Sequence record: PQ671644.1
Origin: Escherichia phage DCP80
Direction: 5' to 3' (one strand)
Length of the DNA stretch: 64,000 nucleotides
The notes beneath the pieces are model-generated. The model was not told the origin of the DNA. It saw only the letters and a list, made by a program, of their open reading frames with translations, and made no database searches. Below are positions 17,999 through 45,289 of this stretch, one piece after another (position 1 is the stretch's first letter; each line of letters opens with the position of its first letter). The position numbers and the translations under genes were made by a program.

Positions 17999-18061
17999 AC
18001 GCTTTATACCAAGGATGGTATAATGGTTCTGACCTTTGATTAATCTATTGAGGAAATTATT

Positions 18062-18904: not shown

Positions 18905-18905
18905 T

Positions 18906-20004: not shown

Positions 20005-20005
20005 T

Positions 20006-20035
20006 GTTTACTTCCAAGGATGGAGGGAGTATAAT
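20006..20035 (+). promoter_or_regulatory. Sigma70-type early promoter
   Basis: GTTTAC 20006-20011, 18-nt spacer, TATAAT 20030-20035. Confidence 0.55.
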
Positions 20036-20062
20036 GAATTCCTACTTTATGAGGAGAACACT

Positions 20063-20806
20063 ATGACACGTAACGAATATATCCAGGCCTTTAACGCAAC
20101 TATCGACACAAAAGTAAAACCATTGACAGGCGAATCGGCTATCCTTTTAATTATCAATTATTGGTTAAATCAGATTGATTCGACGATTGTTGCATCTGGT
20201 CGCTTCAAGAAAGACATTGCAACTATTGCGAGTCGTGCCGGTAATGATGATATCAAGAAAACTTTTAAAGGTTCCAGAGTCCTGGCGTACCTGGTTAATA
20301 AAGACCTTCTTCATAAGTTTGGTGTTGAATCCAACCGCGGTAAAGGTACAATTGGGTATCATTGGTTTGGCGATGTTGAAAAATACTACCTTGATAAACA
20401 AGGCTATACTGTTTCTGAATTCGCACATTGCTGGGCTCGTGAATTCAGAGATAACAAAATGTCTATCATAAAATCAGCGACAAAATTGATGGGCGGTGAT
20501 TTTCGCACTATCTCCCATTTGGCTGAGCACATGATAAAGGTTAAAGAGTCTGGTGAAAACCAGGTAATTATTACAGTTAAGCATGAGTTCTTTACGCCGG
20601 TGGCTACTCCAGAAAATGTCAAAAAGTATCTTGATGTTGCCTGTACGCTTTCTCATCAGCTGGTGTGTGCCCTTAACTATATGCGCACTGTTGAAAAAAT
20701 TAAAGTAGACCCTATCACCAGTGCTCATGGTTGGAAAGGTTGGAAAATTGTGGTGACATTACCGACGATGAAGATGAGGACGATGAATAATGTTTATTAT
20801 CCCTGA
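20063..20806 (+). CDS. Hypothetical protein
   Basis: 247-aa ORF, RBS GAGGAGAA. Confidence 0.6.
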
Positions 20807-21218
20807 TGATTACGAATTAACTCTTGAAAACATTGAAAGTGTTTCCGAAGAAGCTCAGGGACAATTTGATTCATTATCTGAAGCCTTAGAAAAAGACGAT
20901 ATAAATATTATTGTAGAAAACATGTTTGCAGCCGGTGAATACGAAAAAGCAACGGTTATCGGCGCTCTGAATGAAGGTGTTCAGCTTAACGAATTTATCG
21001 TTAAACATGTATCGTCTCGCGGTGAGTTAACCCGCACAAAAGACCGAGCTACTCGTAAGCGTAATGCTTTCCAAACAACTGGTCTTTCTAAAGCTAAACG
21101 TCGTCAAATTGCCCGTCTGGCTACTAAAACGAAAAGAGCAAACCCATCTACGCAAATCAGAGCAGAGCGCAAGCGCAAAAAAGCTCGAGCTAAGCGTAAA
21201 GCATTCGGACTTGATTAA
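20790..21218 (+). CDS. Possible prohead core protein (gp68 position, upstream of gene 21)
   Basis: 142 aa with strongly basic C-terminus; position and size match T4 gp68; sequence not verified. Confidence 0.4.
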
Positions 21219-21856
21219 TGGAACAGAAACCAGAGTTACTAATCGAACACTGGGGTCAACCGGGCGAAATTAAAGATGGTGTACCGATGTTGGAATCTCA
21301 TGATGGTTCCAGCAGCGGTTTAAAGCCAGGACTTTATATTGAAGGTATTTTCCTACAAGCTGAAGTTGTTAACCGTAATAAACGACTTTATCCTAAACAT
21401 ATTTTGGAAAAAGCCGTTGCGGACTATATCGCCGAACAGGTTGAAACCAAGCAGTCTCTTGGAGAATTAAACCATCCACCTCGCGCAAACGTTGACCCTA
21501 TGCAGGCAGCAATTATTATCGAGGAAATGTGGTGGAAAGGGAATGATGTATATGGCCGCGCGCGTATTATCGAAGGCGACCATGGCCCAGGTGATAAACT
21601 TGCTGCGAATATAAGAGCAGGTTGGATTCCTGGTGTATCTAGTCGTGGACTTGGTTCCTTGACTAAATCAGCAAAAGGTTATAGCATCGTTAATGAAGGT
21701 TTTAAATTGACGGTTGGAGTAGATGCAGTATGGGGGCCAAGTGCTCCGGACGCTTGGGTCAAACCAAAGCAGATTACAGAATCACAAACGGCAGTTGCCG
21801 ATACCAGTGCCGATGACGCCTTTATGGCTCTCGCAGAGGCTTTAAAGACGTTATAA
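21218..21856 (+). CDS. 21: Prohead protease gp21
   Basis: 212 aa, near-identical to T4 gp21 (GQPGEI...DGVPMLESHDG...GELNHPPRANVDP...). Confidence 0.92.
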   Translation: MEQKPELLIEHWGQPGEIKDGVPMLESHDGSSSGLKPGLYIEGIFLQAEVVNRNKRLYPKHILEKAVADYIAEQVETKQSLGELNHPPRANVDPMQAAIIIEEMWWKGNDVYGRARIIEGDHGPGDKLAANIRAGWIPGVSSRGLGSLTKSAKGYSIVNEGFKLTVGVDAVWGPSAPDAWVKPKQITESQTAVADTSADDAFMALAEALKTL

Positions 21857-21859
21857 ATA
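21852..21859 (+). promoter_or_regulatory. T4 late promoter box TATAAATA upstream of gene 22
   Basis: Exact TATAAATA about 30 nt upstream of gene 22 start. Confidence 0.6.
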
Positions 21860-21888
21860 AATGTATATCTTAACAACAGGACTACAAA

Positions 21889-22707
21889 ATGCTTAAAGAA
21901 CAACTCATTTCTGAAGCTCAGAATATCGATGCTTCCGTTGCTCTTGATAGTATTTTCGAATCAGTTAATTTGTCCCCGGAAGCGAAAGCTACCTTCGGCA
22001 CTGTATTCGAAGCTACCGTCAAGCAACACGCCATCAAACTGGCAGAATCTCACATTCACGCCATCGCTGAAAAAGCTGAAGAAGAAGTCGAAAAGAATAA
22101 AGAAGAAGCCGACGAAAAAGCAGAGAAAAAACTGAAAGAATCTGCAGCTAAATTCCTGGACCACGTTGCTAAAGAATGGCTCGCTGAAAATAAACTGGCT
22201 GTCGACCGCGGCATTAAAGCTGACCTGTTCGAATCCATGTTCACCGGCATGAAAGAACTGTTCGTTGAGCACAACGTTGTTGTTCCAGAAGAATCTGTCG
22301 ATGTTGTTGCAGAAATGCAGGAAGAACTGGCTGAACAGAAAGAAGAAACCGCTAATCTGTTCGAAGAAGTTGCTAAGCGTGATGCTTATATCAATTATGT
22401 CCAACGTGAAGTTGCGTTGACTGAAGCGACTAAAGACCTGACTGAATCCCAAAAAGAAAAAGTTGGTTCTCTGGTAGAAGGCATGGAATACTCTGATGCA
22501 TTCGGTACCAAAATTGGCGCTATCGTTGAAATGGTTAAAGGTCAGGTAGAACCCACCAACAAACCAATCACCGAAGCCGCTATAAATAAAAATGTAGACG
22601 ATGCTGCGGCACTGAATTACATTTCAGAAGCAGTTGAAGAAAAAGGCGCCAAGCCTACCCTGTCCTTCGCGGACTTGTCTGCTCTCGCAGCATCACGAAT
22701 TTCTTAA
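21889..22707 (+). CDS. 22: Prohead core scaffold protein gp22
   Basis: 272 aa, near-identical to T4 gp22 (MLKEQLI.EAQ.IDASVALDSIFESVN...). Confidence 0.92.
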   Translation: MLKEQLISEAQNIDASVALDSIFESVNLSPEAKATFGTVFEATVKQHAIKLAESHIHAIAEKAEEEVEKNKEEADEKAEKKLKESAAKFLDHVAKEWLAENKLAVDRGIKADLFESMFTGMKELFVEHNVVVPEESVDVVAEMQEELAEQKEETANLFEEVAKRDAYINYVQREVALTEATKDLTESQKEKVGSLVEGMEYSDAFGTKIGAIVEMVKGQVEPTNKPITEAAINKNVDDAAALNYISEAVEEKGAKPTLSFADLSALAASRIS

Positions 22708-22728
22708 TTTAATAAGGTTATACAACAC

Positions 22729-24288
22729 ATGAAAAAGAATGCATTAGTTCAAAAATGGTCCGCTCTGTTGGAAAACGAAGCTCTTCCGGAAATCGTTGGT
22801 GCTTCTAAACAAGCTATCATCGCTAAAATCTTTGAAAACCAGGAACAAGATATTCTGACCGCTCCTGAATACCGTGACGAAAAAATCTCCGAGGCATTTG
22901 GTTCTTTCCTGACCGAAGCTGAAATCGGTGGTGACCATGGTTATGATGCTACCAATATCGCTGCTGGCCAGACCTCTGGTGCAGTAACTCAGATTGGGCC
23001 GGCAGTTATGGGCATGGTTCGTCGTGCTATCCCGCATCTGATTGCGTTTGATATTTGTGGCGTACAGCCTCTGAACAACCCGACTGGCCAGGTATTTGCC
23101 CTGCGTGCAGTATACGGTAAAGACCCTGTAGCTGCTGGTGCTAAAGAAGCTTTCCACCCGATGTATGCTCCGAACGCTATGTTCTCTGGTCAGGGCGCTG
23201 CTGAAGCTTTTGAAGCACTGGCTGCAAGCAAAGTTCTGGAAGTTGGTAAAATTTATTCTCACTTCTTCGAAGCAACCGGTTCTGCACACTTCCAGGCTGT
23301 TGAAGCTGTAACTGTTGATGCTGCTGCTACTGATGCCGCTAAACTTGACGCCGAAGTTACCAAACTGCTCGAAGCTGGTAAGCTGGCCGAAATCGCTGAA
23401 GGTATGGCTACCTCTATCGCCGAATTGCAGGAAGGCTTCAACGGTTCTACTGATAACCCGTGGAACGAAATGGGCTTCCGTATCGATAAACAAGTTATCG
23501 AAGCTAAATCCCGTCAGCTGAAAGCAAGTTACTCCATCGAACTGGCACAGGACCTGCGCGCTGTTCATGGTATGGATGCTGATGCCGAATTGAGTGGTAT
23601 TCTGGCTACCGAAATTATGCTGGAAATCAACCGCGAAGTTATCGATTGGATTAACTACTCCGCACAGGTTGGTAAATCTGGTATGACCAACACCGTTGGC
23701 GCTAAAGCTGGTGTGTTTGACTTCCAGGACCCGATTGATATCCGTGGCGCTCGTTGGGCTGGTGAAAGCTTCAAAGCCTTACTGTTCCAGATTGATAAAG
23801 AAGCCGCTGAAATCGCTCGTCAGACTGGCCGTGGTGCAGGTAACTTCATCATCGCTTCCCGTAACGTAGTTAACGTGCTGGCTGCTGTTGATACTTCTGT
23901 TAGTTATGCTGCTCAGGGTCTGGGTAAAGATTTCAACGTTGACACCACTAAAGCTGTGTTCGCCGGTGTTCTGGGTGGCAAATACCGTGTATACATCGAC
24001 CAGTATGCTCGTGCAGACTATTTCACCATCGGTTATAAAGGCGCTAACGAAATGGATGCTGGTATCTACTACGCACCATATGTTGCACTGACCCCGCTGC
24101 GTGGCTCTGACCCGAAAAACTTCCAGCCGGTTATGGGCTTCAAAACCCGTTACGGTATCGGTATCAACCCGTTTGCTGACCCTGCTGCTCAGGCTCCGAC
24201 CAAGCGCATTCAGAACGGCATGCCGGACATCGTTAACAGCCTTGGCTTGAACGGTTACTTTAGACGTGTATATGTTAAGGGAATTTAA
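22729..24288 (+). CDS. 23: Major capsid protein gp23
   Basis: 519 aa, roughly 85-90 percent identical to T4 gp23 by eye, ending FRRVYVKGI. Confidence 0.95.
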   Translation: MKKNALVQKWSALLENEALPEIVGASKQAIIAKIFENQEQDILTAPEYRDEKISEAFGSFLTEAEIGGDHGYDATNIAAGQTSGAVTQIGPAVMGMVRRAIPHLIAFDICGVQPLNNPTGQVFALRAVYGKDPVAAGAKEAFHPMYAPNAMFSGQGAAEAFEALAASKVLEVGKIYSHFFEATGSAHFQAVEAVTVDAAATDAAKLDAEVTKLLEAGKLAEIAEGMATSIAELQEGFNGSTDNPWNEMGFRIDKQVIEAKSRQLKASYSIELAQDLRAVHGMDADAELSGILATEIMLEINREVIDWINYSAQVGKSGMTNTVGAKAGVFDFQDPIDIRGARWAGESFKALLFQIDKEAAEIARQTGRGAGNFIIASRNVVNVLAAVDTSVSYAAQGLGKDFNVDTTKAVFAGVLGGKYRVYIDQYARADYFTIGYKGANEMDAGIYYAPYVALTPLRGSDPKNFQPVMGFKTRYGIGINPFADPAAQAPTKRIQNGMPDIVNSLGLNGYFRRVYVKGI

Positions 24289-24303
24289 TCCTTAATAAAT
24301 TTA

Positions 24304-24332
24304 AGGGACTCTTCGGAGTCCCTTTCTTGTTT
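24304..24332 (+). terminator. Rho-independent terminator after gene 23
   Basis: GGGACTC-TTCG-GAGTCCC hairpin followed by T-rich run. Confidence 0.75.
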
Positions 24333-24614
24333 TCATACCATACCATTTAAATGAACTTCTACCCGGCGCTTGATGAGGTCTCTGAAGTTAACATTGTTTT
24401 CTTGAAGTTTCAACCAATTACCATTTTTATCTTTAGTGTGAGTAGAATAATTACCATTCCACCAGAAATCAGTGTCATATGCTAAGTTTTCATATTTTTT
24501 AACTAGTTTGTTCAGAGCATTACCATTAACACCATTTGGGTATTTGTTGACCAATGCAATAACTTCAATTTCCAGATTTTTAAAGGTGTTCAGAAGGAAA
24601 GTTGATTTGTTCAT
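24333..24614 (-). CDS. Hypothetical protein, opposite strand between genes 23 and 24
   Basis: 93-aa ORF with its own family-A promoter on the minus strand. Confidence 0.5.
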   Translation of the reverse strand: MNKSTFLLNTFKNLEIEVIALVNKYPNGVNGNALNKLVKKYENLAYDTDFWWNGNYSTHTKDKNGNWLKLQENNVNFRDLIKRRVEVHLNGMV

Positions 24615-24630
24615 TTTTAAACTCCATTGT

Positions 24631-24690
24631 TTGGTAACTCAGTATGGAATCATTATGTCTTATCTTAATCTGGTTGTAAACAACTTTTAT
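24631..24690 (-). promoter_or_regulatory. Early promoter cassette, family A, minus strand
   Basis: Minus strand: GTTTAC (plus 24676-24681), 18-nt spacer, CATAAT (plus 24652-24657), then ATTCCATACTGAGTTACC. Confidence 0.6.
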
Positions 24691-24695
24691 AAATA
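24688..24695 (+). promoter_or_regulatory. T4 late promoter box TATAAATA upstream of gene 24
   Basis: Exact TATAAATA 27 nt upstream of gene 24 ATG. Confidence 0.6.
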
Positions 24696-24721
24696 AAGTA
24701 TATCACAAAAGGAAAGCGCAA

Positions 24722-24921
24722 ATGGCAAAGATTAACAAATTACTGCGCGAGTCAACTACCACTACCAGCAACTCCTTGGGCCGCCCGAATCTTGTTGCTT
24801 TGACCCGCGCTACAACCAAATTGATTTACCGCGATATTATCGCTGAACAACGTACAAGCCAGCCAGTTGCGGCGCTGTATGGTGTTAAATATCTTACTCC
24901 TGATAATGAATTCAGTTTCCA
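24722..24921 (+). CDS. 24: Head vertex protein gp24, N-terminal part (cut by N-run)
   Basis: MAKINKLLRESTTTTSNSLGRPNLVALTRATTKLIY... near-identical to T4 gp24 N-terminus. Confidence 0.85.
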
Positions 24922-24962: not shown

Positions 24963-25045
24963 TTCCCGGTCGCATTATCTTTAAAAATTCTATCAAGAAG
25001 TCCAAAAAGTAGGTCTGATAATGAAAATCCTACTTTTGGTTCCAT
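24963..25045 (-). CDS. t: Holin t, first 27 codons (cut by N-run); identical to copy at 7323-7405
   Basis: Same MEPKVGFSLSDLLFGLLDRIFKDNATG; located downstream of T4-type gene 38. Confidence 0.7.
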
Positions 25046-25085
25046 ACTTTTCTCCTTTAAAGATATTTATAATGCTTTTGCGCTA

Positions 25086-25631
25086 CTATTTTTTAAACCA
25101 TCTTTTGAAGAATGATTTTTTCTCTTTTTCTGGCCAAGCCGGGAATTCACCACCGAGGTGTTCGTGTTTTTCTAAAAGAGCAAAGAAACGTTTAAGATTC
25201 TGGTGATAGAATTTTTCTTTCTTATCGGCGACTGAGGCTTCAACCATATTACTTAATACCTGGAATTCTTTATACAAATCGTCAATTTTTCGATTGCGAA
25301 TCATTACTCGTTTATATGTTTCATCTTCTTTCCAGCCATCATCTGTCCATATATCAAACTCGCCAGGTTTATCGAAAGTTATACCGACTGGGCTTCCTAT
25401 GTCATTTATTAAGATTTCTTCTTTATTAAAAGTCCATGCACGTTTGCCTCGATGGTCTTCTTCATAAATCCAATCTTGAATGCGTTCGTCAAATACAACG
25501 GCATACCCTTCTTTAGGTTCTAAAGGTTTTTTAGCTGTTGAATGGGCCGGAAGGCCAAGGCCTTTAATGGGTTTATAATTTTCTTCTTTGTAGAATTCTT
25601 TTGTGTCAAAATAAAAATGATAAATTTTCAT
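25086..25631 (-). CDS. 38: gp38, T4-type tail fibre assembly chaperone
   Basis: MKIYHFYFDTKEFYKEENYKP...HLGGEFPAWPEKE near-identical to T4 gp38 (183 aa); ORF-track start is an upstream TTG. Confidence 0.9.
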   Translation of the reverse strand: MKIYHFYFDTKEFYKEENYKPIKGLGLPAHSTAKKPLEPKEGYAVVFDERIQDWIYEEDHRGKRAWTFNKEEILINDIGSPVGITFDKPGEFDIWTDDGWKEDETYKRVMIRNRKIDDLYKEFQVLSNMVEASVADKKEKFYHQNLKRFFALLEKHEHLGGEFPAWPEKEKKSFFKRWFKK

Positions 25632-25658
25632 ATTCAAAAGGGGCCGAAGCCCCTCTCC

Positions 25659-28600
25659 TTATGCTAAACGAACGATATAGTTAAAAGCAATGTTTTTAAC
25701 CGTGTTTTCTGTATTACCTGTACTATTTACGGTAATGGTATGCCCATGTGAACCAATCGCTACAGTATGAGTGTGAGCACCGATACCTACCGTATGCGTG
25801 TGAGCACCAATACCTACAGTATGAGCGTGGTTACCTGTGGCACTTGTGGTCCCTGACCAACTATGAGTATGAGCACCGTCTGAAGAAGTTTTGGCTATAT
25901 TCGACCCTGCAGTAGCACCGCTCACGGTTCCAGTGATTTTAGCGTTGGCGTTTGCACCTACACTATTATATCCGTCATAGAATATGTTATTGGGTACGCC
26001 GGCTTGCATCTGAGGGCCTGAACGCGCGTGTTGGTGTGCTCCGGCTGAACTGGTAGTACCACTCACTGTATGGTTATGGTTACCGGTGGTATTACTGGTC
26101 TTAGTACCATAATCAAAGCTTGAAGATGTTTTAGTGCCATAATCAAAGCTTGATGTGGTTTTAGTACCCAAGTCAGTACTCGAAGCAGATGCGCCATGGT
26201 TATGAGACTTAATACCATCAGCTTCTGCACTCAACACTGCGCGGCCACTTGGTTTACCCTTGATAGTTTGTCCACGCATATCAGGAATAGTACCAGAAGG
26301 ATATGCAACAGCAAGCTTAGGATAAGCACCTGTATCAAAGGTCTGACCTTCCATCAAAGCATAACCATTAGGAGGAGTATCCGTTGGCCATGGAATTGGG
26401 GCTCCAATAGGATAACTTGAAACAATATCAGTTTTAAGTGATTCAATTGTACTGTTTAAGTTAGCAAAGTTACCAGAGCCACCGGTGATATTACCATCAG
26501 TTCCTAAAGTTGTGTTGCCTACAATAATTTTACCAGGTAAGCGGAAGTCACCGGTGCGGCGGAATTCCCAACTTAAATCAGTTCCGGTAGTACTATTGCC
26601 CTGGTGATAATGAACGCGGAAGTCTCCTTGAGAAATTAAGGTGCCAATAGAATAAGTGCTATCACCATTTACATACCGTTGTTTAACAATAGGAATGTAT
26701 TCAGAAGTAGCAGTACGCTCTATATTCATATAAATTGGAGCCCTGACATCTGCGTAATTCTGAGATGCAAACGAACCAGCTCCTGCTGGGCGTACCGTAT
26801 CAGTACATTCGGCCTCAATATATGTCGACTGCCCCAATTTCATTCTAAAATTGGCATTAATGCGAGAGTTACTGTTTATCGTAGTTAAAGCATTATTTTG
26901 ATCTACTATAAAAGAATCTCTTCCTAATCCAACCATACCATCGTTTAATCCTATTCTCACAGGTCTCAAAGAGCTGTGAATGTCTCCACTTTCGCCTTCA
27001 TTTTGATTGGTTGGAAGAATATAAAAGTTACTTTCTGAACGACGGAAAATAGCGCCATATTCAGCATTCCAAATTCTTAATGCATCTGCTGTTCCACCAA
27101 TTTTTACTTGTCCGGTAATAGAAGAACCACCTTGGACAAACAAACCGTTAGACATAGTAACATTGCCACCAAAAGAACCTGTACCGGAGGCACTTATATT
27201 TCCAAGGCCTATGATATGGTCTGTTTCAACAGCTCCGTTAAATTTAAAGTTAACTGGACCTACTGTTTGACCTGACGCAGGATTAGTACGTTGAGCGTAG
27301 AAATAATAACCTTGTGAATCTGAAACTTCGAATACAGTTTCTCTATTACCGCCACCTGTATTAAATGAATTACCCCACGCTTTAATAGATATATAGTTTT
27401 TATTCTGTCCTGCGCGAGTACCAGCGCCCCACAGTATAGTTTTAGTGCCATCTAATGATGTAGGTGCATCAAGTTGAATACCGTCAGCTCTAGCCCCGGT
27501 AAGAAGTACCCCGTTATCAAATTTAATTCTTTGAATAGAAGAAATAGTGCCGTCAGCATAAAGCTGTACATTATTAGCGCCGGTTACCAGTTTAAGAATA
27601 CCTGGGTTAAGTTCCATGCCTTCTTGGGTGTTAATATTGGTTTGACCTCTACCGCGGAAATAGTGCGACATTTTTCCGCCAGAGTTATAACCAATATGCG
27701 TCTGACCATCGCCAGCTGTATTCCCGTCAGCCTGAGTTTGAGCTGATAAAAATGCAGCATTGGTTCCAGGCATAATCCATGTGGTGCCTTGGTCTTCTGA
27801 ACGACCAAATAAACCTTTACGAGTACTACGGAAACTATCTGGAGTAATAGAAGCAACTGAATTCCCTGAACCAACTAAATCATAAACACCGGTTTTTTTG
27901 TATGACAGCCCCGTCCCGTTATCGCCTAGAGCTAAATAAACACCGAATCCTAAAGCGGCACCATTACCATAGTCGCTTGACGGGTATCCTTCAGTCACAG
28001 TACCAATGGCCAAGCTATTGCGAACAATCATTCTGCCGTCATTACGAATACCATATAGTTTATATGTTGGTGTATTACCAGACCACCAAGAAACCTCATC
28101 AGCTTGGCCTAATTGGGCCGTACAAATTTCATGATACATTGTACCACCAGACTTGGCGCGAACTTTACGAAGATAGTTTACACCATTCGTTTCGCCTGTG
28201 CCTGGGTATGTATATTTAACTAATGAATCAGTGTCATATACACCAAATGCTTTGGCATCGTGAATAACTGTATCAGCTGCAATGCGTTTTGTTAATAACG
28301 CATCCGAAGCTAAAATACGGTTAGCCTGAAATTCACCGCCGTTTATAGAACGGAAATAGAATTCACTATTAGCAGTGCCTTCTGTCCCCTGTTTAAGCCT
28401 AATGCGTAATTCACCAGCATTTGTAGTTTGAGGGCGAGTATATATAACACCACGTTCAGTGCCATCGGCATTTTCAAACCAAAGGTGGGCATTTGACGTA
28501 TCGTTTGTTGCTCTTGAATAAAACGAACCCTGTAATGCTCTAAAAGTTTGAGCCGAAATACTCGTGCCTGCTGTAATCGACCCGCTTGTGGAAAAGTTTC

Positions 28601-28832
28601 CAAAATTGTTTAATGGGCCATTAATGCGTAAAGTTCCAGTAATAGTTACATCGCCATCAACTTGTCCACCTTTTGCAAAGCCCAAATCAATAATCTGTCC
28701 CTGGTCGGACTTGGTAAAAATAGTGCGGTCACGCAAGTTAATAGCCAGTTCGCCTTCATCTAACTGAGCTGCAGTAGGCTTGGCTCCTGGTGTTTTACTT
28801 CTTTTAAATTGTATCGATTTTAAAGTAGCCAT
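25659..28832 (-). CDS. 37: Long tail fibre distal subunit gp37, T4-type with His-box tip
   Basis: 1057 aa; N-terminus [13 protein letters not shown] and C-terminus [47 protein letters not shown] as in T4 gp37. Confidence 0.95.
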
Positions 28833-28840
28833 AATGCCTC

Positions 28841-29045
28841 TTAATAATATCCAAAATCTTCAGATGTACCTCTAAGAACAACCTGGTCAATACGAGGAAC
28901 GTGTTCGTTCAATGTTCCTGGGTTCCTAGATATGAAATTCGGGGCTGAAAGAACACCAGCCATAGATTGTATGTTACTATTATTTATTTGGACCTGTTTT
29001 GCGTTATCCACATCACTTAATCCAACTTGTGCTTTTGTCGGGGTA
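28841..29045 (-). CDS. 36: Tail fibre subunit gp36, C-terminal part (cut by N-run)
   Basis: Frame open from gap, stop adjacent to gene 37 start as in T4 36-37. Confidence 0.65.
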
Positions 29046-29102: not shown

Positions 29103-29276
29103 ATTAACCCAGCCAAAGACCATCCGGTTTGGCGTGAATGTGTTGAGCAAGGGTTTATCTATGTTCACTTTATGTCTAAGTTTAAACCAGATGGGCGAAT
29201 GAGATTTGTGTTCACTTATCACAAACGCCTGGATTTGCTTTTGGAAGATGTGGCATATAATAGAGCCAACGACTAA
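29103..29276 (+). CDS. C-terminal fragment of unknown ORF upstream of ligase
   Basis: Open frame from gap ending ...AYNRAND. Confidence 0.3.
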   Translation: MNPAKDHPVWRECVEQGFIYVHFMSKFKPDGRMRFVFTYHKRLDLLLEDVAYNRAND

Positions 29277-29285
29277 GAGGTGATT

Positions 29286-30818
29286 ATGATTTTAGATATT
29301 TTAAATGAAATTGCTGCAACCGATTCCACTAAAGAGAAACAAGCTATCCTGGAATCGTATTCTGACAATGAAACCCTTAAACGCGTGTATCGTTTGACAT
29401 ATTCCAAAGGCATCCAGTTCTATATTAAGAAATGGCCTAAACCTGGGGCAACGACACAAAGCTTTGGTATGCTGAATATCGATGATATGCTTGACTTTAT
29501 CGAATTCACATTGGCCTCTCGCAAATTGACAGGTAATGCTGCAATCGAGGAATTATCTGGCTATATTGCAGATGGTAAAAAGGCTGATGTTGAAGTTCTT
29601 CGCCGTGTGATGATGCGTGACCTGGAATGCGGAGCATCCGTATCAATTGCGAATAAGGTTTGGAAAGGTTTAATTCCTGAACAACCACAGATGCTCGCTT
29701 CTTCCTATGATGAAGCCGGTATTGCCAAGAACATTAAGTTCCCGGCCTTTGCACAATTGAAAGCCGACGGCGCTCGGTGTTTTGCAGAAGTTCGTGGCGA
29801 TGAGTTGGATGATGTTCGATTGTTATCCCGAGCTGGCAACGAATACCTCAAGCTTGACCTCCTTAAAAAGGAATTGATTGAAGCTACCCGTGAAGCGCGT
29901 GAGAGACATCCTGAGGGCGTTTTGATTGACGGCGAGTTAGTATACCATGAACAGAAAGTAGCTCCCCAGAATGACGGTTTGGGTTTCCTTTTTGACGATT
30001 CAGATGAGATTGCTCCTGCAAAAGAAACCGCAGAATCAAGAACATTTTCGAATGGTATGGCAAACAAATCATTAAAAGGAACCATTTCTGCAACAGAAGC
30101 TTCTTGCATGAAATTCCAGGTTTGGGATTATGTTCCGCTGATTGAAGTCTATTCTGATGTTAAGATTCTCAATCCGTTGAAATACGATGTGCGTTTTGCT
30201 GTTCTGGAAAAGATGATTGCAGATAACGTGGTGTTGCATGGTTTCGACCGCATGATTCTGATTGAAAACCATGTTGTTAACAATCTCGATGAAGCGAAGG
30301 TTATCTATAAGAAATATGTGGATGAAGGTCTTGAAGGTATTATCCTTAAGAACATGGCATCGATTTGGGAAAACAAGCGCTCAAAGAACTTGTATAAGTT
30401 CAAAGAAGTAATTGACATCGCAATGGAAATCATTGGATATTACGAGCACGATAAAGACCCGAATAAGATTGGTGGTGTTGTGCTTCGTTCTTCTTGTGGT
30501 AAGATTACAAATAACTGTGGTTCTGGTTTTAAAGACACAACTCAAGTTAAAGATAAGAAAACCAAAAAATGGGTTACTATTCCGATTGAGGAGCGTCATA
30601 AACTAGACCGTGAAGCCTTGATGGTTAAAGCCCGCAAAGGTGAATTGGTTGGAATGATTGCTGACTGTGAATGCAATGGTTGGTTGACTTCCGAGACTCG
30701 TAAAGATAATACGGTTGCATTGTTCCTGCCGATTATCAAAGGGTTCCGTTTCGATAAAGACCATGCAGACACATTCGAAGATGTATTTGGTGACTGGTCA
30801 AAGACTGGACTAAACTAA
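29286..30818 (+). CDS. 30: ATP-dependent DNA ligase gp30
   Basis: Near-identical to T4 DNA ligase including adenylation lysine motif KADGARC; start at MILDIL. Confidence 0.92.
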   Translation: MILDILNEIAATDSTKEKQAILESYSDNETLKRVYRLTYSKGIQFYIKKWPKPGATTQSFGMLNIDDMLDFIEFTLASRKLTGNAAIEELSGYIADGKKADVEVLRRVMMRDLECGASVSIANKVWKGLIPEQPQMLASSYDEAGIAKNIKFPAFAQLKADGARCFAEVRGDELDDVRLLSRAGNEYLKLDLLKKELIEATREARERHPEGVLIDGELVYHEQKVAPQNDGLGFLFDDSDEIAPAKETAESRTFSNGMANKSLKGTISATEASCMKFQVWDYVPLIEVYSDVKILNPLKYDVRFAVLEKMIADNVVLHGFDRMILIENHVVNNLDEAKVIYKKYVDEGLEGIILKNMASIWENKRSKNLYKFKEVIDIAMEIIGYYEHDKDPNKIGGVVLRSSCGKITNNCGSGFKDTTQVKDKKTKKWVTIPIEERHKLDREALMVKARKGELVGMIADCECNGWLTSETRKDNTVALFLPIIKGFRFDKDHADTFEDVFGDWSKTGLN

Positions 30819-30822
30819 TAAA

Positions 30823-30841
30823 AGGGCTTCGGCCTTTTTTT
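30823..30841 (+). terminator. Terminator candidate after ligase
   Basis: AGGGC-TTCG-GCCTT hairpin with T-run. Confidence 0.55.
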
Positions 30842-30876
30842 CGTATAAATACATCATATTTTATAAGGAAAACAAT

Positions 30877-32754
30877 ATGACCGAATTATTGTCAGAGGTT
30901 TTTGAAGGGGAATCTAATATCCCGGCCATTAACCTTTCAAAGTCAAAAGTTCCACAGATTTGGAATATTCAGGTCCCTGGGAACGATAATCTTATTGCTC
31001 GTATGGTTTCTTACGCATCCGAAGGCGATGCTATCAAACAGGTCAAAACTGGTGATAAGTATGCTCACGTTATTTTGATGTCGTTAAATTCAAACGGTAC
31101 TCCAGCTATTCTTAAAGGGGGTCTTGGTGATAACCCGATTGGAGCAATTAAATCCATTTTTGATGTAGTTTACGAACAAGTAAAACTGATGAAAATGGAT
31201 GCAATTATGTTCCGCTTCCCGACCCGTAAAATGAAGGGGCAAGAACGAACCATTCAGCGTGTTCTTGCTCGACTTATTATGGCTCGCGCGGGTGGCCAAT
31301 TCAAAGTCCTGGATGATATGTATCAATACACAGGTAAACATACTTACGTATTGATTTATCGTAAATCCAAACCGATTGAATCTATCGCCGGAATTCCAGG
31401 CATCAACACTGAGCTATACACAAAAGTGGAATCGAAAGTTGGTGATGTTTATGTGGATAAAGCCAGCGGTGAAACTGTTACCAAAAATGAAGCTATTGCA
31501 GCATCCATTGCAAAGGTTGAAGAAAAACGTACAGACCAGGCAGTTGTTGTTAAAACCAAGTTTTCTAAACGCGCGGCTATTAATGCGTTGTATTCGGGGA
31601 ACGAACCAACTGGGCTTGCTAAATTCTCGCCAGAACATAAAGAGATTTATACAAAGCTCTCGACTACCAGCGCAGTGCATTCAACAGATGATGCCAGAGA
31701 AAGTCAGATAGCTAAAGCTTCGATAAAAGTAATCGACCGAGCAGGTGATGAATATGCAGATTATTTTGATTTAGTCGCGCAAGGCGATGTCGGTGAAGAT
31801 AAGACAAAAACTCGTGTAGCTATGGATGTGCTTAATGCTCTTAAAGAAGTCGGCATGGAACACAAAATAAGTGAGTTTTCGAACGTCCTGCGAGCCTCAA
31901 AGAATCCTGTTGATACATTGCGCAGGATTGCGGATATGTTGCTCGACGACTCCATTGTGGGGACCTGGGCTCGCGAAGATAAGACTAAAGAAGCTATTCG
32001 TATTATTGCGGATGAAATTTATACCAAGGCAATCCAACCGTTATTCCATATCTCCGATAACCCTGAAATAACCGACGACCAGGCCGAAGCAATTAAGGCA
32101 TATACTCGCGGAAAATATACTGCAATCAATAATTTCCTTTTAGGGAAAGCTGATGCAAAAGAAAGCGAAATCAAAATGATTTCCGATATGGATAAAGTGT
32201 TTGAAAACGGTGTTAAGCTTCCGAAAGGAACTATTATCTACCGTGCTCAAGTTATGCCAACTGACATGGCGATTAATTCCATCAAAAATAAAACGATGTA
32301 TCTTCCTATGTTTGCAAGTACATCTCTTGCGCCAAATATTTTTGGTCGTATGGGCCATACTGCAGCAAACCTTGACCCGAATGCATTATCAAGTGATATC
32401 GATGACGGGGCAATTGATGCAACTATTAAGAGTGCAACTGGTTCAGCAAAGCCTACAATCAAGATTGGTATGATTATCAAAGGTGCAGAAAATATCAAGG
32501 TAGTTATCCCTGGTGACTTGGCAAACTGGTCCGTTGAAACCGAAGTTATTCTTCCTCGTGGAACGATGCTTAAGATTGATAAGGTCTATGGTGCTACTGC
32601 TGGCATGATGGGTTCGATGGGTAAATACATTCTTGTTGAATGCTCTATCTTAGAAAATGACCAGATAGACGAATCAAATTCGCTTTTGAAAAAATATGAC
32701 AGAATCTCTTATGATTTGTCTATGGAAAAACTTGTACACCTTCTTAATTATTAA
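30877..32754 (+). CDS. alt: Alt-like ADP-ribosyltransferase (R-S-E type)
   Basis: 625 aa; C-terminal region has Arg (IIYRAQ), STS (MFASTSL) and ExE (VETEV) motifs; position after gene 30 fits T4 alt region. Confidence 0.65.
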   Translation: MTELLSEVFEGESNIPAINLSKSKVPQIWNIQVPGNDNLIARMVSYASEGDAIKQVKTGDKYAHVILMSLNSNGTPAILKGGLGDNPIGAIKSIFDVVYEQVKLMKMDAIMFRFPTRKMKGQERTIQRVLARLIMARAGGQFKVLDDMYQYTGKHTYVLIYRKSKPIESIAGIPGINTELYTKVESKVGDVYVDKASGETVTKNEAIAASIAKVEEKRTDQAVVVKTKFSKRAAINALYSGNEPTGLAKFSPEHKEIYTKLSTTSAVHSTDDARESQIAKASIKVIDRAGDEYADYFDLVAQGDVGEDKTKTRVAMDVLNALKEVGMEHKISEFSNVLRASKNPVDTLRRIADMLLDDSIVGTWAREDKTKEAIRIIADEIYTKAIQPLFHISDNPEITDDQAEAIKAYTRGKYTAINNFLLGKADAKESEIKMISDMDKVFENGVKLPKGTIIYRAQVMPTDMAINSIKNKTMYLPMFASTSLAPNIFGRMGHTAANLDPNALSSDIDDGAIDATIKSATGSAKPTIKIGMIIKGAENIKVVIPGDLANWSVETEVILPRGTMLKIDKVYGATAGMMGSMGKYILVECSILENDQIDESNSLLKKYDRISYDLSMEKLVHLLNY

Positions 32755-32762
32755 GGGTAAAA

Positions 32763-33152
32763 ATGTCTGAACAATTAAATGAACTCTTTGACAAATATAT
32801 CGAAGCCTTCGGTTATCCTGTCATTAATATGAATCCAAAATACAAGGTCCCGCAGGTTTGGCAATTCGGTGTTCCTGGGACCAATTCTCTTATGGCCCGT
32901 TTGATGCAATTCACGGGCAAAGAAACAGTTAAACAATATAAACGTGGTGATGCAATTGCCGAGGTATTCCTGCTCTCCGGGACTTCACACGGCCACGCTG
33001 TTCCTCTGAAGGGTGGTCTAGGTGAAAAACCTCTTGATGCAATTAACCTGATTTTTGTTACAGTCTGGGAAAGCATTAAACTAGGCAAACCTGATGTAGT
33101 CTTGTTCCGTTTCCCATCCAAAAAGATGAAAGGACAAGACCAAGCTGTTATT
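32763..33152 (+). CDS. Paralogue of the Alt-like N-terminal domain, truncated by N-run
   Basis: First ~120 aa align with N-terminus of the 625-aa protein (KVPQxW...PGxxxLxARM...LKGGLG...FRFP.KKMKGQ). Confidence 0.6.
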
Positions 33153-33268
33153 NNNNNNNNNNNNNNNNNNNNNNNNNNNNNNCAGTAAACTATTCCTGCA
33201 TAATGATGACCCCGGAGATTTGAAACTTTGATGTCACGGTCTGACACATTGAAATGCTTAATCATAAT

Positions 33269-33466
33269 TTATTCACCAAAATAAGAGATACGAACTGCCA
33301 GTACATGAGCATAAGCGCCCATCGCGTCTAGTTGTGCAATCAAAAGACCTTGTTGACGAGCATCGAGAGTTTCAAAAACACCGCCCTTAATAAATTCTTC
33401 AAGAGCATTGATTTTCAAAACCAGCTGGTCATGTTCTTCAACTGCACGTGCTTGGAAACCTAACAT
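33269..33466 (-). CDS. Hypothetical protein downstream of rIIB
   Basis: 65-aa ORF with GAGG RBS, preceded by GGGGC-TTCG-GCCCC hairpin. Confidence 0.45.
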   Translation of the reverse strand: MLGFQARAVEEHDQLVLKINALEEFIKGGVFETLDARQQGLLIAQLDAMGAYAHVLAVRISYFGE

Positions 33467-33499
33467 AAAGCCTCATTAGGGGCCGAAGCCCCGATTAAT

Positions 33500-34474
33500 T
33501 TAGAATTGTTCAGTTACATCATCAAGAACCAGGTAACCACAAACCCTCATCTTACTATCACCATAATCCACCGGGATGCTTACAACATCACGCGGGTGAA
33601 CTTTACAGGATACGATGCGGCCATCACCATGGCCAAAGCCACTTCCGATATAACCTTTAGAACAAACGTGCAGCCCAGTTGAACAGGTCTGTTCGTCATT
33701 GTCATTCACACGAGAGCGCGGCATTTTAACATATTGGCCAGGGCTGTTGTCGAATGTGTTTGAGTGGCAATCTTTGTAGGTTGAACGAACCATTTTCCAT
33801 GCGATGAAATGACCGTCTTCGGTGATTTCGATATCGTTTGCAACCAGGAAGTCAAACAAACGCTGTACAGCTTTCTCACTCGGGTTCTCAAGGAGATTCT
33901 CAAGGAACGGCAGATAGAATTCAAAGTCTTCGCCATTTTGCATTGAATCAATGATACGAGTAACCAGGCCGGAGCGCAGTTCAATTCCCTGATAGAACAG
34001 ACTACCACCTTCAATACGCACATCGCCTTTCACATATTTTTGTACTGCAGCTTTGATTGAAATAAACTCGATAGCATCTTCATAACGGAATTCAATCAAT
34101 GCCTGAATAATATCATCAAAGTGTTTATGGTCTTTTGTTGCGTTCCAGACTGTACGACCTTCAGTGATGGAAACGAATTTGCTTGATGCGTTCCATACGA
34201 TTTCTGGACGGCTGCCGCCGATTGTATCTTCAACAACCGGAACTTCAACCGTTACTGTCACTGGAGCATTAATCGCCACCCCGACAGCGGCTTTCAATGA
34301 TGCAGAAATGGTTTTAGCTAATTTTGATTCTTTATCATTTTTCAAAACGCGGCGAATGGTGTCAACGGACACAGCAAAATATTCTGCCAATTCAGGCTGG
34401 GTATAATTGCCAGTTGAATACATCTGGACCACATCAGCTTGTTCGGCTTTAGACATACATTTGATATTAAACAT
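33500..34474 (-). CDS. rIIB: rIIB protein
   Basis: 324 aa, MFNIKCMSKAEQADVVQMYSTGNYTQ... with conserved C-terminal half as in T4 rIIB. Confidence 0.92.
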   Translation of the reverse strand: MFNIKCMSKAEQADVVQMYSTGNYTQPELAEYFAVSVDTIRRVLKNDKESKLAKTISASLKAAVGVAINAPVTVTVEVPVVEDTIGGSRPEIVWNASSKFVSITEGRTVWNATKDHKHFDDIIQALIEFRYEDAIEFISIKAAVQKYVKGDVRIEGGSLFYQGIELRSGLVTRIIDSMQNGEDFEFYLPFLENLLENPSEKAVQRLFDFLVANDIEITEDGHFIAWKMVRSTYKDCHSNTFDNSPGQYVKMPRSRVNDNDEQTCSTGLHVCSKGYIGSGFGHGDGRIVSCKVHPRDVVSIPVDYGDSKMRVCGYLVLDDVTEQF

Positions 34475-34475
34475 A

Positions 34476-36710
34476 TTATTCCTTATTGGCCGCTTCCACG
34501 GCCTTCATGATTTGAGCAACGTTCTGTACTTGTTCAGTTGACATAGCGTTACGGTTATATAAAAAGTGTGAAACAATCGGGTGATTCTTTTCAAATTCAA
34601 AAACCATTTTATCGCTTGTTACCGAAGCGTTTTTGGTCAGGTCGTCATAAATCTTATTACAAAGGACCAGCGTTTCCTGCATGGTCTTATCAACCGTTCC
34701 ACTGTTATATGCGTTATAAGCAAAGAACTTATTGAACTGCATTAGTTCGGCATAGTCAGTATTCACATCTTTCTGAACATCTTTCGCATAAAAATACTTG
34801 AACATAAAATTCAGTTCTGCATATTCAGACAGGATAGGAATATAATAACGCGAACGGCTTGAAGCGGCAATGTACTGGTCCGCATCAACCGCATCAATCA
34901 ATTCCACATAACGATTGACTGCAGCTTCAATCAGACAATCACATTGCGCCAGCTTGGTAACCTTTTTCTGAAGCTGTGGACGAATAACACAGAATTCATT
35001 GATTTCCAACAGGTTTGCCAGTTTACACAATGTCTGGGTCCCGAAGGTCGTGGTGCCATATTCCTGATTCAACGGGGAAATGCTACTGCGGTTAATGAAT
35101 ACAGCATAACCATCGATTTCCTCTGCATCAGCTGCACATGTAAATTCTTCAACAGACTGCCATTTGCCATTAGTTTTAGTCCAACGAATCAATGATGGAG
35201 TCTTTGACTTAACGCGCGCTTTCGGGTCAGCAACCGGAATCCAGTCTTTTACAAGGGCAATCAGTTCAGATGTACGATAGATATTAACCGTATCGCCTTC
35301 AAATCGTTCCTGGAGTTGAACCATCAGACGTGTTTGAATTTCGCTGGTTGGGTCAACGAACAATAGACTACTACCTTGTACAGTCGGAACTTTACCAGAT
35401 GCTTTGAGCTTTTTGGCTTTCGCGCTGGTGTCATACAGCATTGAACTGATACCACGAATCATCGCAATTCGCCCTTTAGCATCGTCAATAACAATATTCA
35501 AGGTATCATTATGAATACCAAACATGCTTGTCAGGCTTGCAGTATTCGTGTTCGAGCTTGAGTTACGCAGACGTTTCAGACGGGTGGTGCTATAGATATC
35601 ATAGACAACCCCGGCATTAATAAGGTCTTTGTCCAGCTCAAACATTTCGTACATCTGGTTAAAAGTCAATTGTGATTTTGTAAATTTCGTTTCAGCATTA
35701 CGAGCTTTCAGAAAATTACGAGCTTCATAATTCAGATTCTGTAATTCGCGATACGTGTGGCGGATACATTCTGATTCCTGCCATTTCTTACAATCATCTT
35801 CCATAACTTTCTTATCAAGGGATTCAATACGTTCAACGATATTTGCGACCGTACGTTTGTCCAGCGATAATGCTTCACGAGAAGGAGCGATATCCAGCGA
35901 ACCCATCGGGAACTTAATAAAGACAACATCATTTTTGGCAGTCATCCAGGTTTTCTTTGTATAACCGTCGGCAATTGGATAAACAATTCCACCGTAAATT
36001 GCATAAAGACCATAACGTTCTGGGCTACTATAATTAATACGCTCTGGAGCATAATAATCATCAAATTCTGGGAAGTAATTAATTTCGCCTACGCCTTGTA
36101 CTTCAGCCAGTCCGGCAAATGGGCGCATGATATATGCAATCTCGTGGCGGAACTTACCAAAATCATTACTATCAACCGGGACAACAACTTCAATCCCCGT
36201 CCGGTCACCAGGTTTCATTGGTTCGCTAAAGGTTGGCTTAATCTGTGGGCCATCGCCGTCCATATAAGCGACATAACCATTAACTTGACCATCGTGATAT
36301 GAAATCAGGCTAAACGTCTCTGTATAACTAAACGGAGATTTAGAACCCAGACCAAAGCCACCAATAAAATCATTGGATTCTGCCTTGGATGATGCAAAGA
36401 AACTGTTATACAGACCTGGGGTATTTTCATCACCACGAATCTGGAAATCACTCATACCCGGACCAAAGTCACGACATACAAAACGTGGGTCCAGTTCACC
36501 AGGAGCTTGCACAATGAATTTATCCTGACAGCCATTGAGCATATGAGCATCAATCATATTGGTAATCAGCTCACGGACAACCGCGCGCACCTTGTTTGTA
36601 TAAAGGTCGCTGGTCAGAATCTTAAACACCTTCGGAGATGCCTGGATTGTGAATGCTGACGCCTTGGCACCATTACCAAGGATTGTTTCCTTTTCAGTTT
36701 CTAAAATCAT
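34476..36710 (-). CDS. rIIA: rIIA protein
   Basis: 744 aa, MILETEKETILGNGAKASAFTIQASPKVFKILTSDLYTNK... as in T4 rIIA. Confidence 0.92.
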   Translation of the reverse strand: MILETEKETILGNGAKASAFTIQASPKVFKILTSDLYTNKVRAVVRELITNMIDAHMLNGCQDKFIVQAPGELDPRFVCRDFGPGMSDFQIRGDENTPGLYNSFFASSKAESNDFIGGFGLGSKSPFSYTETFSLISYHDGQVNGYVAYMDGDGPQIKPTFSEPMKPGDRTGIEVVVPVDSNDFGKFRHEIAYIMRPFAGLAEVQGVGEINYFPEFDDYYAPERINYSSPERYGLYAIYGGIVYPIADGYTKKTWMTAKNDVVFIKFPMGSLDIAPSREALSLDKRTVANIVERIESLDKKVMEDDCKKWQESECIRHTYRELQNLNYEARNFLKARNAETKFTKSQLTFNQMYEMFELDKDLINAGVVYDIYSTTRLKRLRNSSSNTNTASLTSMFGIHNDTLNIVIDDAKGRIAMIRGISSMLYDTSAKAKKLKASGKVPTVQGSSLLFVDPTSEIQTRLMVQLQERFEGDTVNIYRTSELIALVKDWIPVADPKARVKSKTPSLIRWTKTNGKWQSVEEFTCAADAEEIDGYAVFINRSSISPLNQEYGTTTFGTQTLCKLANLLEINEFCVIRPQLQKKVTKLAQCDCLIEAAVNRYVELIDAVDADQYIAASSRSRYYIPILSEYAELNFMFKYFYAKDVQKDVNTDYAELMQFNKFFAYNAYNSGTVDKTMQETLVLCNKIYDDLTKNASVTSDKMVFEFEKNHPIVSHFLYNRNAMSTEQVQNVAQIMKAVEAANKE

Positions 36711-36717
36711 GTTTTTC

Positions 36718-36927
36718 TCACTTTATGCTACGTTTGATTAATTCTGCAACTTCAAGAAGTTCATCCTTTGTTGCGGTGTCTGAAGCTATTTTATTACGGA
36801 TTTCTTTGAAGCGTTCTTTAAACTCTTCGGCTTCTCTTATATCAAAAAATCGTTGGATAACGCGGTATTCTTTATGAACAGCTTTATCAAACAGTTCCAT
36901 ATTAACTTTGAAGTTCGTCATTTCCAA
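36718..36927 (-). CDS. Hypothetical protein in rIIA.1 position
   Basis: 69-aa ORF immediately upstream of rIIA; synteny only. Confidence 0.5.
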   Translation of the reverse strand: MEMTNFKVNMELFDKAVHKEYRVIQRFFDIREAEEFKERFKEIRNKIASDTATKDELLEVAELIKRSIK

Positions 36928-37134
36928 TCTCCTGTAATATTTTTCTCATACTACGCATGGTAGCTTTATGTTCTTGGTCATGGTATATCAATGCNNNNNN
37001 NNNNNNNNNNNNNNNNNNNNNNGACTATAAATTATGGAATCTTTCCGTTCTTTCTTACTGAAGTATTCTGGGTTAACAAAAGGCCAAAGACCTTAGAACC
37101 ATTATACACAGTAAAAATAAAAGCGTTAAAGGCA

Positions 37135-44126: not shown

Positions 44127-44192
44127 NNNNNNNNNNNNNNNNNNNNNNNNNNNNNNNNNNNNCTTTTGCCTGACGTTCAGCTTCTTCTTGTG

Positions 44193-44387
44193 TCATGATT
44201 TATCTCCGTAGATATCACGCATCAGTTTAAGCACAGCTCGTTCGGTCTTCTTTTCCTGCATATCTTTGACGCTGGCGGCGGCCCATTCTTCAGCTTCGCG
44301 CTGCATTTCTTCCTCGGCTCTGGCTACCCAGGAATCATCAATCCCTGGAGTAACCAACCAATCTTTAAGCCAACTTGTAATTCTCAT
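44193..44387 (-). CDS. Hypothetical protein (second copy of 15404-15598)
   Basis: Identical 64-aa protein. Confidence 0.5.
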   Translation of the reverse strand: MRITSWLKDWLVTPGIDDSWVARAEEEMQREAEEWAAASVKDMQEKKTERAVLKLMRDIYGDKS

Positions 44388-44938: not shown

Positions 44939-45014
44939 AGTATTCTCCTCTGTAGTTGAGATAATTATACCATCTCTATTAAAAGCAAAAAGGGAACCCG
45001 AAGGTTCCCTATAA

Positions 45015-45248: not shown

Positions 45249-45289
45249 AATAAACTCCTTTGTTGTTTAATTACAGGTGTATTTATAAC

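Follow-up and report, generated by a model that had tools for sequence, protein, structure and literature searches.

Whether a phage gene that shares the N-terminus of an ADP-ribosyltransferase encodes an effector of another kind, or simply a further copy of the same enzyme, is the question raised by a locus of Escherichia phage DCP80 (record PQ671644.1), of which a stretch of 64,000 nucleotides, hereafter the window, has been analyzed. The initial annotation had described a 625-aa protein with R, STS and ExE motifs in its C-terminal part, followed by a gene that starts with a paralogous N-terminal domain and then runs into Ns, and it had proposed a family of injected effectors built on a common N-terminal module. 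Its description of the sequence and its identification of an ADP-ribosyltransferase (ART) have been borne out, while its interpretation of the second gene has to be abandoned. Based on the observed sequence, fold, motifs and gene context, the locus is very probably the altA-altB pair of a Gaprivervirus (SP18-like, T4-like) coliphage, that is, tandem paralogues of T4 Alt that follow the DNA ligase gene and share a late promoter, with altB cut by the end of a contig.

The altA gene and its upstream region

The altA gene is complete (30877..32754, on the plus strand like all the genes and elements described here) and its 625-aa product is, as predicted from sequence, an Alt-like R-S-E ADP-ribosyltransferase. 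The catalytic motifs are found at R456 (codon 32242-32244), S481-T482-S483 (32317-32325) and E554-T555-E556 (32536-32544); R456, S481, E554 and E556 do not vary in the family alignment (54 sequences), where conservation of S483 and E599 reaches 90% or more. AltA matches the Pfam profile PF03496 (ADPrib_exo_Tox) over residues 397-589 with 57.1 bits (E 1.9e-15), above the curated cutoff of 23.4 bits, and PHROG 802 over residues 1-603 (3e-198), and it thereby combines the ART fold, the R-S-E order of motifs and a PF03496 score beyond threshold. A profile of the 54 sequences also matched the structures of C3, Certhrax, Vip2, iota toxin and ExoS (best E 1.6e-11); these toxins were reached only with this profile, a single-sequence PDB search with AltB having returned nothing relevant, and NCBIfam had no match for AltA, AltB or the altB fragment. 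The R-S-E toxins of PF03496 (C3-like, Vip2, iota, Certhrax, Vis and ExoS) differ in that bacteria secrete them, as toxins or effectors directed at eukaryotic or rival-cell targets, and they have neither the Alt N-terminal domain nor delivery by a phage head.

T4 Alt (UniProt P12726, 682 aa), a head-packaged NAD+:arginine mono-ADP-ribosyltransferase, is collinear over its full length with AltA (33% identity) and with AltB, the product of the second gene (35.7%), and shares with them the R-S-ExE motifs, the location between gene 30 and gene 54 and the L/I-x-E sites. In AltA, a predicted N-terminal propeptide (residues 1-7, MTELLSE; 30877..30897) ends with L-S-E, a site of the gp21 type, and is followed by the conserved N-terminal domain common to altB (residues about 8-235; 30898..31581), by a variable all-helical middle region (residues about 236-395; 31582..32061) and by the ART catalytic domain (residues about 396-599; 32062..32673), at the end of which I-D-E599 forms the predicted C-terminal gp21 site. 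The middle region, with helices at 252-391 in the structure model, has 10-21% identity to the paralogues with numerous gaps and is essentially unalignable with that of T4 Alt (13%). The mapped cleavage sites of T4 Alt are ITE-6 and LTE-619, with which LSE-7 and IDE-599 of AltA align, the counterparts in AltB being LNE-7 and LDE-619. E7 of AltA is nearly invariant among 54-70 homologues (at least 90% conserved), and these motifs predict a cleavage of AltA by the gp21 prohead protease after E7 and E599. Regarding the C-terminus, alignment with T4 Alt and the paralogues delimits a short tail of 26 aa (32674..32751), which bears no relation to the tail of about 63 aa (YDGDxLMETGELV...LASCI..IPxKF) that is conserved among T4 Alt, AltB and the Dhakavirus Alts (6-12% identity in this segment); pLDDT is low at residues 599-612 of the structure model. 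Unlike T4 Alt, AltA is devoid of the conserved C-terminal propeptide, which is a minor new point.

The left neighbor of altA is the DNA ligase gene (29280..30818, 512-aa ORF), a homologue of T4 gene 30 and the conserved left neighbor of the alt locus, which corresponds to features labeled 'DNA ligase' in Shigella phage SP18 and Escherichia phage PSD2001 and shares 97% identity with a ligase fragment from phage TH40. Between ligase and altA, direct reading of the sequence reveals a short GC hairpin with a TTCG loop and a T-run (30820..30841, aaaagggc-ttcg-gcc-ttttttt), which looks like a terminator; it was not called by a simple terminator scan because its stem has fewer than 5 pairs without A-T extension. 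When the contig was scanned for sigma-70 promoters and terminators, no signal exceeded what shuffled sequence would give. The hairpin is followed, 26 nt upstream of the altA ATG, by an exact copy of TATAAATA (30844..30851), an octamer that is well established as the T4 late-promoter consensus and that occurs 15 times in the window for 4.6 copies expected. From its sequence and position, this copy would work as the late promoter of altA. In TH40, which is devoid of altA, the ligase gene is directly followed by the same hairpin, promoter and leader, and then by altB. A terminator has likewise been predicted upstream of alt in five of six T4-like genomes (Nolan et al., 2006).

Relatives of the pair and distribution of altA

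The same two genes are present in phage SP18, as alta and altb (NC_014595.1 / GQ981382.1; YP_003934835.1 and YP_003934834.1), and in phage PSD2001 (UIS66154.1 and UIS66153.1), both of which share 95-97% DNA identity with the window. As in the window, DNA ligase is the left neighbor and the intergenic spacing is 9-10 nt. AltA is 98.7-99.7% identical to its counterparts and, except for one additional residue as compared to SP18 and for the cut altB, nothing of substance differs. In both phages, the gene order is ligase - altA - altB - alt.-3 - gp54. The location of alt between gene 30 and gene 54, on the same strand as gene 30, is therefore found here too, its right side being read from SP18 and PSD2001.

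Unlike T4, which has one intact alt and the degraded remnants alt.-1 and alt.-2, the pair consists of two intact copies. Tandem alt paralogs are common between DNA ligase and gp54, with two copies in T2, three in the Dhakaviruses C6 and LHE83, and two plus an ART-only ORF in the Aeromonas phages AhFM11 and 44RR; locus, orientation and domain architecture are the same in these arrays, while copy number and sequence differ. A count of four copies in LHE83 ('4 places') was discarded, one of its three tandem copies being split by the origin of the record. Alt duplications have been described since 2006. AltA-type sequences are rare: at 80% identity or more they occur in only 5 of 50,697 phage records, and altA is found in only four sequenced phages. 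It is an accessory cassette, or extra copy, which is another minor new point.

The second gene, the contig end and competing readings

By its sequence, the second gene is altB, a second Alt paralogue, seen in the window through its first 130 codons (32763..33152). As the initial annotation had noticed, the two genes start with paralogous domains, and this similarity withstands proper alignment, with 57 identities over 130 residues (44%, BLASTP E 2e-34), far beyond chance. The fragment matches PHROG 802 (1.6e-45) and is identical over 130/130 aa to altB of SP18 (686 aa) and of PSD2001 (98.5% at the DNA level). In these phages, full-length AltB aligns with AltA over residues 1-620 (33% identity) and has its own PF03496 domain (5.8e-20; 71.9 bits for SP18 AltB) with the motifs R475, S500-T-S and E577-Q-E579. 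The similarity had seemed to be restricted to the N-terminus because the contig stops within altB at codon 130; what had been taken as a gene sharing 'only' this domain is a gene whose remainder is absent from the window and hence not observable there. Indeed, tblastn and blastn searches with SP18 and PSD2001 altB and downstream DNA located nothing more of it in the window beyond 32763-33152.

Within the Alt family, conservation is highest in the N-terminal domain. With fragments and spurious matches left out, 57 of the 61 relatives of this domain carry PF03496. The four proteins without a Pfam ART match (P0066, P0068, P0069 and P0070) are rare, metagenomic, and match PHROG 802 over their N-terminal 140-220 positions only; degenerate ART-like motifs were recognized in P0068 by hhalign and in P0066 and P0069 by eye, and P0070 has the N-terminal module without detectable ART. 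Two further candidates, P0073 and P0074, are cadherin/Ig-repeat proteins and were rejected as spurious matches. A search for protein homologues with the domain yielded only four proteins, mostly partial, which served merely as a thin alignment; the precomputed label PF26846.1 was met in this search. Across phage records (n=50,697), the module occurs at 1752 places and the ART domain at 1803, and the idea of a module that is commoner alone than the ART domain was accordingly discarded. AhFM11 even offers the opposite of the model put forward in the initial annotation, its third place being a 358-aa protein which shares the ART domain and has no N-domain.

It had been proposed that the second gene encodes a different, unknown injected effector, in which a portable N-terminal capsid-targeting domain would be joined to a non-ART C-terminal domain. 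The conservation of the N-domain, the comparison limited in the window to the N-terminal 130 aa and the four proteins matching PHROG 802 only N-terminally are in line with this proposal, but it is very unlikely in view of the PF03496 domain found in nearly all N-domain relatives, of the degenerate ART-like motifs in three of the four others and of the near-equal counts of both domains in phage genomes. At the window locus, the sequence identity of the fragment with the start of a 686-aa altB that carries PF03496 and R/STS/ExE refutes it. The C-terminal part of altB in DCP80 could still differ from that of SP18, the draft mixing at least two strains. It is harder still to credit that the Ns are a real gap of 30 nt within a truncated alt remnant comparable to alt.-1 and alt.-2 of T4. 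An in-frame reading across the Ns does give a 141-aa ORF that stops with TAA at 33186-33188, T4 does carry degraded fragments of alt paralogues, and public data contain short ORFs made of the N-domain alone (P0057, P0058, P0061, P0064 and P0067). Yet, with every piece of the window mapped onto the complete genome of PSD2001, the flanks of the N-run (33153..33182) are placed at positions 79608-75552 (left) and 122005-125816 (right), about 46 kb apart, the right-hand one falling in the rIIA/rIIB region; the flanks being unrelated, the 141-aa ORF is an artefact. Moreover, all 15 N-runs of the window end at a coordinate that is 2 mod 60, each filling up a line of 60 bases, and the successive pieces are ordered by length, decreasing from left to right; one junction, 20762/20763, is free of Ns, the contig there measuring exactly 4200 nt. 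The Ns are thus padding that joins two unrelated contigs rather than a sequencing gap inside a gene. As a practical lesson, the N-runs of the window are contig joins, genes that meet them have been cut short by the assembly, and any ORF that spans them is artefactual.

The remaining alternative concerns AltA, which would be a genuine ART but neither a virion protein nor injected, having a late intracellular role or becoming a pseudogene, while AltB alone would do the job of Alt. Most Gapriverviruses are devoid of altA, which is therefore dispensable. In AltA, 26 unrelated residues replace the conserved tail, and the protein could be absent from the virion should packaging depend on the latter. 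Against this stand an intact ORF conserved between independent isolates, the retention of every catalytic residue and of the L-x-E7 and I-D-E599 sites, the same late promoter, and the assignment in T4 of the capsid-targeting function to N-terminal propeptides. We consider this alternative unlikely.

Proposed mode of action and significance

According to the altA-altB reading, both proteins have the same four parts, namely a short N-terminal L-x-E propeptide, a conserved N-domain of about 230 aa, a variable helical linker and an R-S-E ART with a terminal L/I-x-E. By analogy with T4, the two genes would be read from a single late promoter and both proteins synthesized late and incorporated in the prohead core, where the prohead protease would trim them at both ends (after E7 and E599 in AltA, after E7 and E619 in AltB). 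[quoted passage not shown] T4 Alt, present at about 40 copies per head, is injected and modifies Arg265 of the RNA polymerase alpha subunit; this residue, in one of the alpha subunits, is its main target, and the modification favors phage early promoters. Activity, packaging, cleavage, injection and targets are here carried over from T4 Alt, to which AltA and AltB are only 33-36% identical, and it is by this homology that AltA is probably, as first suggested, a head-packaged injected effector. Since altA is an additional copy whose ART domain is divergent and whose product is devoid of the conserved C-terminal propeptide, the target range of AltA probably differs from that of AltB.

Regarding the N-domain, its predicted fold has a weak GNAT-like resemblance, also a minor new point, and it was compared with the acetyl-CoA motif Q/R-x-x-G-x-G/A that precedes helix alpha-3. 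In AltA, this domain is 64-66% identical to the Dhakavirus copies, while the ART domain is only 36-41% identical. This Dhakavirus-like N-domain (65%) next to a divergent ART, together with P0070, suggests the speculative and rather doubtful idea that the domain, about 230 aa long in all Alt paralogues, is more than a packaging handle and acts as a GNAT-like cofactor- or substrate-binding module that is recombinable with different ART or other C-terminal domains. If so, AltA and AltB would be effectors that are both injected but differ in their target spectra, and they might have a second activity as well.

The value of the locus as a discovery is small, the altA/altB pair being already known from the annotation alta/altb of the SP18 GenBank record GQ981382.1 and alt duplications having long been on record. 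Its interest lies in the biology of T-even phages, in which injection of more than one Alt paralogue would be common. To our knowledge, nobody has compared the targets of co-injected Alt paralogues in these phages. AltA, as an accessory protein with a divergent catalytic domain and without the C-terminal propeptide, would be a natural test case for the roles of both Alt propeptides and of the N-domain.

Contig structure of the draft and the end of the second gene

The window contains 15 N-runs, all of which end at a coordinate equal to 2 modulo 60, and the pieces between them become shorter from left to right (5205, 4704, 4465 and so on down to 3194 nt), which is the pattern of contigs sorted by size and filled up with Ns to complete a 60-column FASTA line. 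When every piece was placed on the complete PSD2001 genome (Escherichia phage, OK254198.1), the pieces proved to be scattered and contig neighbours in the window were not genome neighbours; any gene or ORF touching an N-run is therefore truncated or chimeric. The over-long piece 16563-24921 consists of two contigs, whose junction at 20762/20763 is free of Ns because the first contig is exactly 4200 nt long. The N-run at 33153-33182, where the visible part of the second gene of the pair ends, is a contig join and not a sequencing gap: piece 29103-33152 maps to PSD2001 79608-75552 and piece 33183-36994 to 122005-125816, in the rIIA/rIIB region. With flanks mapping so far apart, the 141-aa ORF that can be read through the Ns is therefore an artefact, and the second gene is merely cut off.

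At least two related Gaprivervirus-like phages are present in the draft. Contigs 12063-16527 and 44163-47536 overlap over 3378 nt, with 96.6% identity, and contigs 7323-12026 and 24963-29045 are identical over 111 nt at one end, on the side of the distal tail-fibre locus where holin and gp38 lie, past which they diverge to about 75% identity in gp37/gp38-type tail-fibre genes. Co-occurring strains with different receptor-binding tips are thereby suggested. The latter contig also encodes, at 25659-28832 (-), a 1057-aa distal long-tail-fibre protein (gp37-like) with a C-terminal run of H-x-H repeats, the body of which matches PSD2001 weakly, with alignment at the contig ends only.

The altA/altB pair

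A DNA ligase gene (29280-30818, 512 aa) adjoins altA on its upstream side, and the interval from its stop to the altA start holds a small GC hairpin, followed by a T-run, at 30820-30841. Next comes an exact match to TATAAATA, the T4 late-promoter consensus, at 30844-30851, 26 nt before the ATG of altA (30877-32754, +, 625 aa). The altB ORF begins nine bases past the altA stop, at 32763 (+), and its first 130 aa are visible before the N-run. Across the whole window the octamer occurs 15 times (e.g., at 20900, 21852, 22581, 24688, 41195, 42591, 43947 and 44036) against 4.6 expected from shuffles, a count reached by 1 of 100 shuffles; this excess is compatible with a T4-like phage having many late genes in these contigs.

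Several lines of evidence bear out the initial annotation of the 625-aa protein as an Alt-type R-S-E ADP-ribosyltransferase (ART). PF03496 (ADPrib_exo_Tox) matches AltA residues 397-589 (1.9e-15; 57.1 bits, cutoff 23.4), while PHROG 802 ('Alt-like RNA polymerase ADP-ribosyltransferase') covers residues 1-603 at 3e-198. The R, STS and ExE motifs that had been claimed are present as R456, S481-T-S483 and E554-T-E556, with R456, S481, E554 and E556 invariant across 54 aligned family representatives, and the corresponding profile matches the solved structures of C3, C3larvin, Certhrax, Vip2, iota-toxin, ExoS and Vis (best E 1.6e-11). An ART-fold hit, whose absence would have refuted the initial reading, was thus obtained, and the ART assignment is confirmed.

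The N-terminal similarity reported between the two genes is also real: the altB fragment shares 57/130 identities (44%) with AltA (BLASTP of the two window proteins, E 2e-34) and matches PHROG 802 at 1.6e-45. The second gene had been read as an effector sharing only this N-terminus and carrying a different C-terminal domain. The rest of altB is absent from all other contigs of the window. By megablast, the stretch formed by the ligase and the two ORFs occurs at 95-97% identity in four Gaprivervirus phages (SP18, PSD2001, 212 and P896); SP18 is annotated with alta (624 aa), altb (686 aa), then alt.-3 and gene 54, and PSD2001 has the same layout. AltA of the window is 98.7-99.7% identical to its counterparts in SP18 and PSD2001, and the altB fragment matches their two altB proteins without a single difference over the N-terminal 130 aa (130/130). 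Full-length AltB of these phages carries PF03496 at residues 413-606 (5.8e-20), the motifs R475, S500-T-S and E577-Q-E579, and aligns with window AltA over residues 1-620 (33% identity, E 6e-80). The second gene is thus a complete Alt paralogue with no different C-terminal domain, and the proposed second effector is an artefact of the contig end. The locus is the altA/altB pair already known from SP18-like phages.

Architecture, predicted processing sites and probable life history

An alignment of six proteins (AltA, AltB, T4 Alt and three Dhakavirus C6 copies) distinguishes four parts: a conserved N-domain (AltA residues about 1-235; identity 42% with AltB, 46% with T4 Alt and about 65% with C6), a barely alignable helical middle (residues 236-395, 10-21%), the ART domain (residues 396-600, 33-41%) and a C-terminal tail. 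The gp21 prohead protease cuts T4 Alt at ITE-6 and LTE-619, so that the last 63 residues are lost (Ali et al., 2017), a numbering that we confirmed on the T4 Alt sequence. In AltA, LSE-7 and IDE-599 align with these sites, and in AltB, LNE-7 and LDE-619; E7 and E599 are at least 90% conserved across the Alt family. Predicted mature forms are residues 8-599 of AltA (64.9 kDa) and 8-619 of AltB (68.4 kDa). AltB, T4 Alt and all three Dhakavirus copies have the conserved propeptide of about 63 C-terminal residues (YDGDxLMETGELV...LASCI..IPxKF), whereas AltA lacks it and bears, after the retained I-D-E599 site, an unrelated 26-aa tail (residues 600-625, 32674-32751).

In T4, Alt is present at about 40 copies inside the head; it enters the prohead core, is trimmed by gp21 and is ejected with the DNA. 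AltA and AltB most likely share this life history, since a late promoter precedes the pair, both cleavage motifs are present and the catalytic residues are intact. The late-promoter match would place their expression late, as for T4 Alt, and for both proteins head packaging, gp21 cleavage, injection with the DNA and the choice of targets are inferred from homology to T4 Alt.

Proposed reuse of the N-domain and distribution of altA

The proposal of a shared N-terminal module on different C-terminal domains fails for this locus. Across phage genomes, the N-domain is no more widespread than the ART domain (1752 places in 1201 records vs 1803 in 1220). HMMER, run with the N-domain as query over the full set of 1.84 billion representative proteins, gave 70 matches, 57 of which carry PF03496; the other 13 comprise seven short fragments, two spurious repeat proteins and four metagenomic representatives (P0066, P0068, P0069 and P0070) that match PHROG 802 at their N-terminus only (N-module E 1e-11 to 1e-18) and have no Pfam-detectable ART. 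Among these, P0068 (1142 aa) has a degenerate ART-like middle by hhalign and a long extra C-terminal region, P0066 and P0069 show by eye S-C-S and E-x-x-LP(R/K) remnants, and the C-terminal ~380 aa of P0070 (541 aa) gave no detectable match. Modular reuse of the Alt N-domain is thus at most a rare fringe phenomenon.

With AltB as tblastn query, the Alt family was found at 1840 places in 1221 phage records, out of 50,697. Tandem alt copies occupy the same locus in T2 (two), in Dhakavirus C6 and LHE83 (three each) and in Aeromonas phage AhFM11, where an ART-only ORF accompanies two copies. Duplications of alt have already been described, T4 alt.-1 and alt.-2 being remnants of one (Nolan et al., 2006); the arrangement seen here is therefore already known and annotated. 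The AhFM11 ORF, a 358-aa 'hypothetical protein' upstream of alt_2 and alt_1 (L006:2887-3963), shares with Alt the ART domain only (PF03496, 8.9e-08), with an N-terminal half different from that of Alt, the reverse of the modularity initially proposed.

Gaprivervirus TH40 has a ligase gene with 97% identity, and immediately after it come the same hairpin, TATAAATA leader and altB, with no altA; window 30820-30876 (hairpin, TATAAATA and leader) corresponds to TH40 L012:1118-1176. An AltA-type N-domain at 80% identity or more occurs in only five of the 50,697 phage records, which represent four phages (SP18, twice, PSD2001, 212 and P896). As a small new observation, altA is an accessory cassette.
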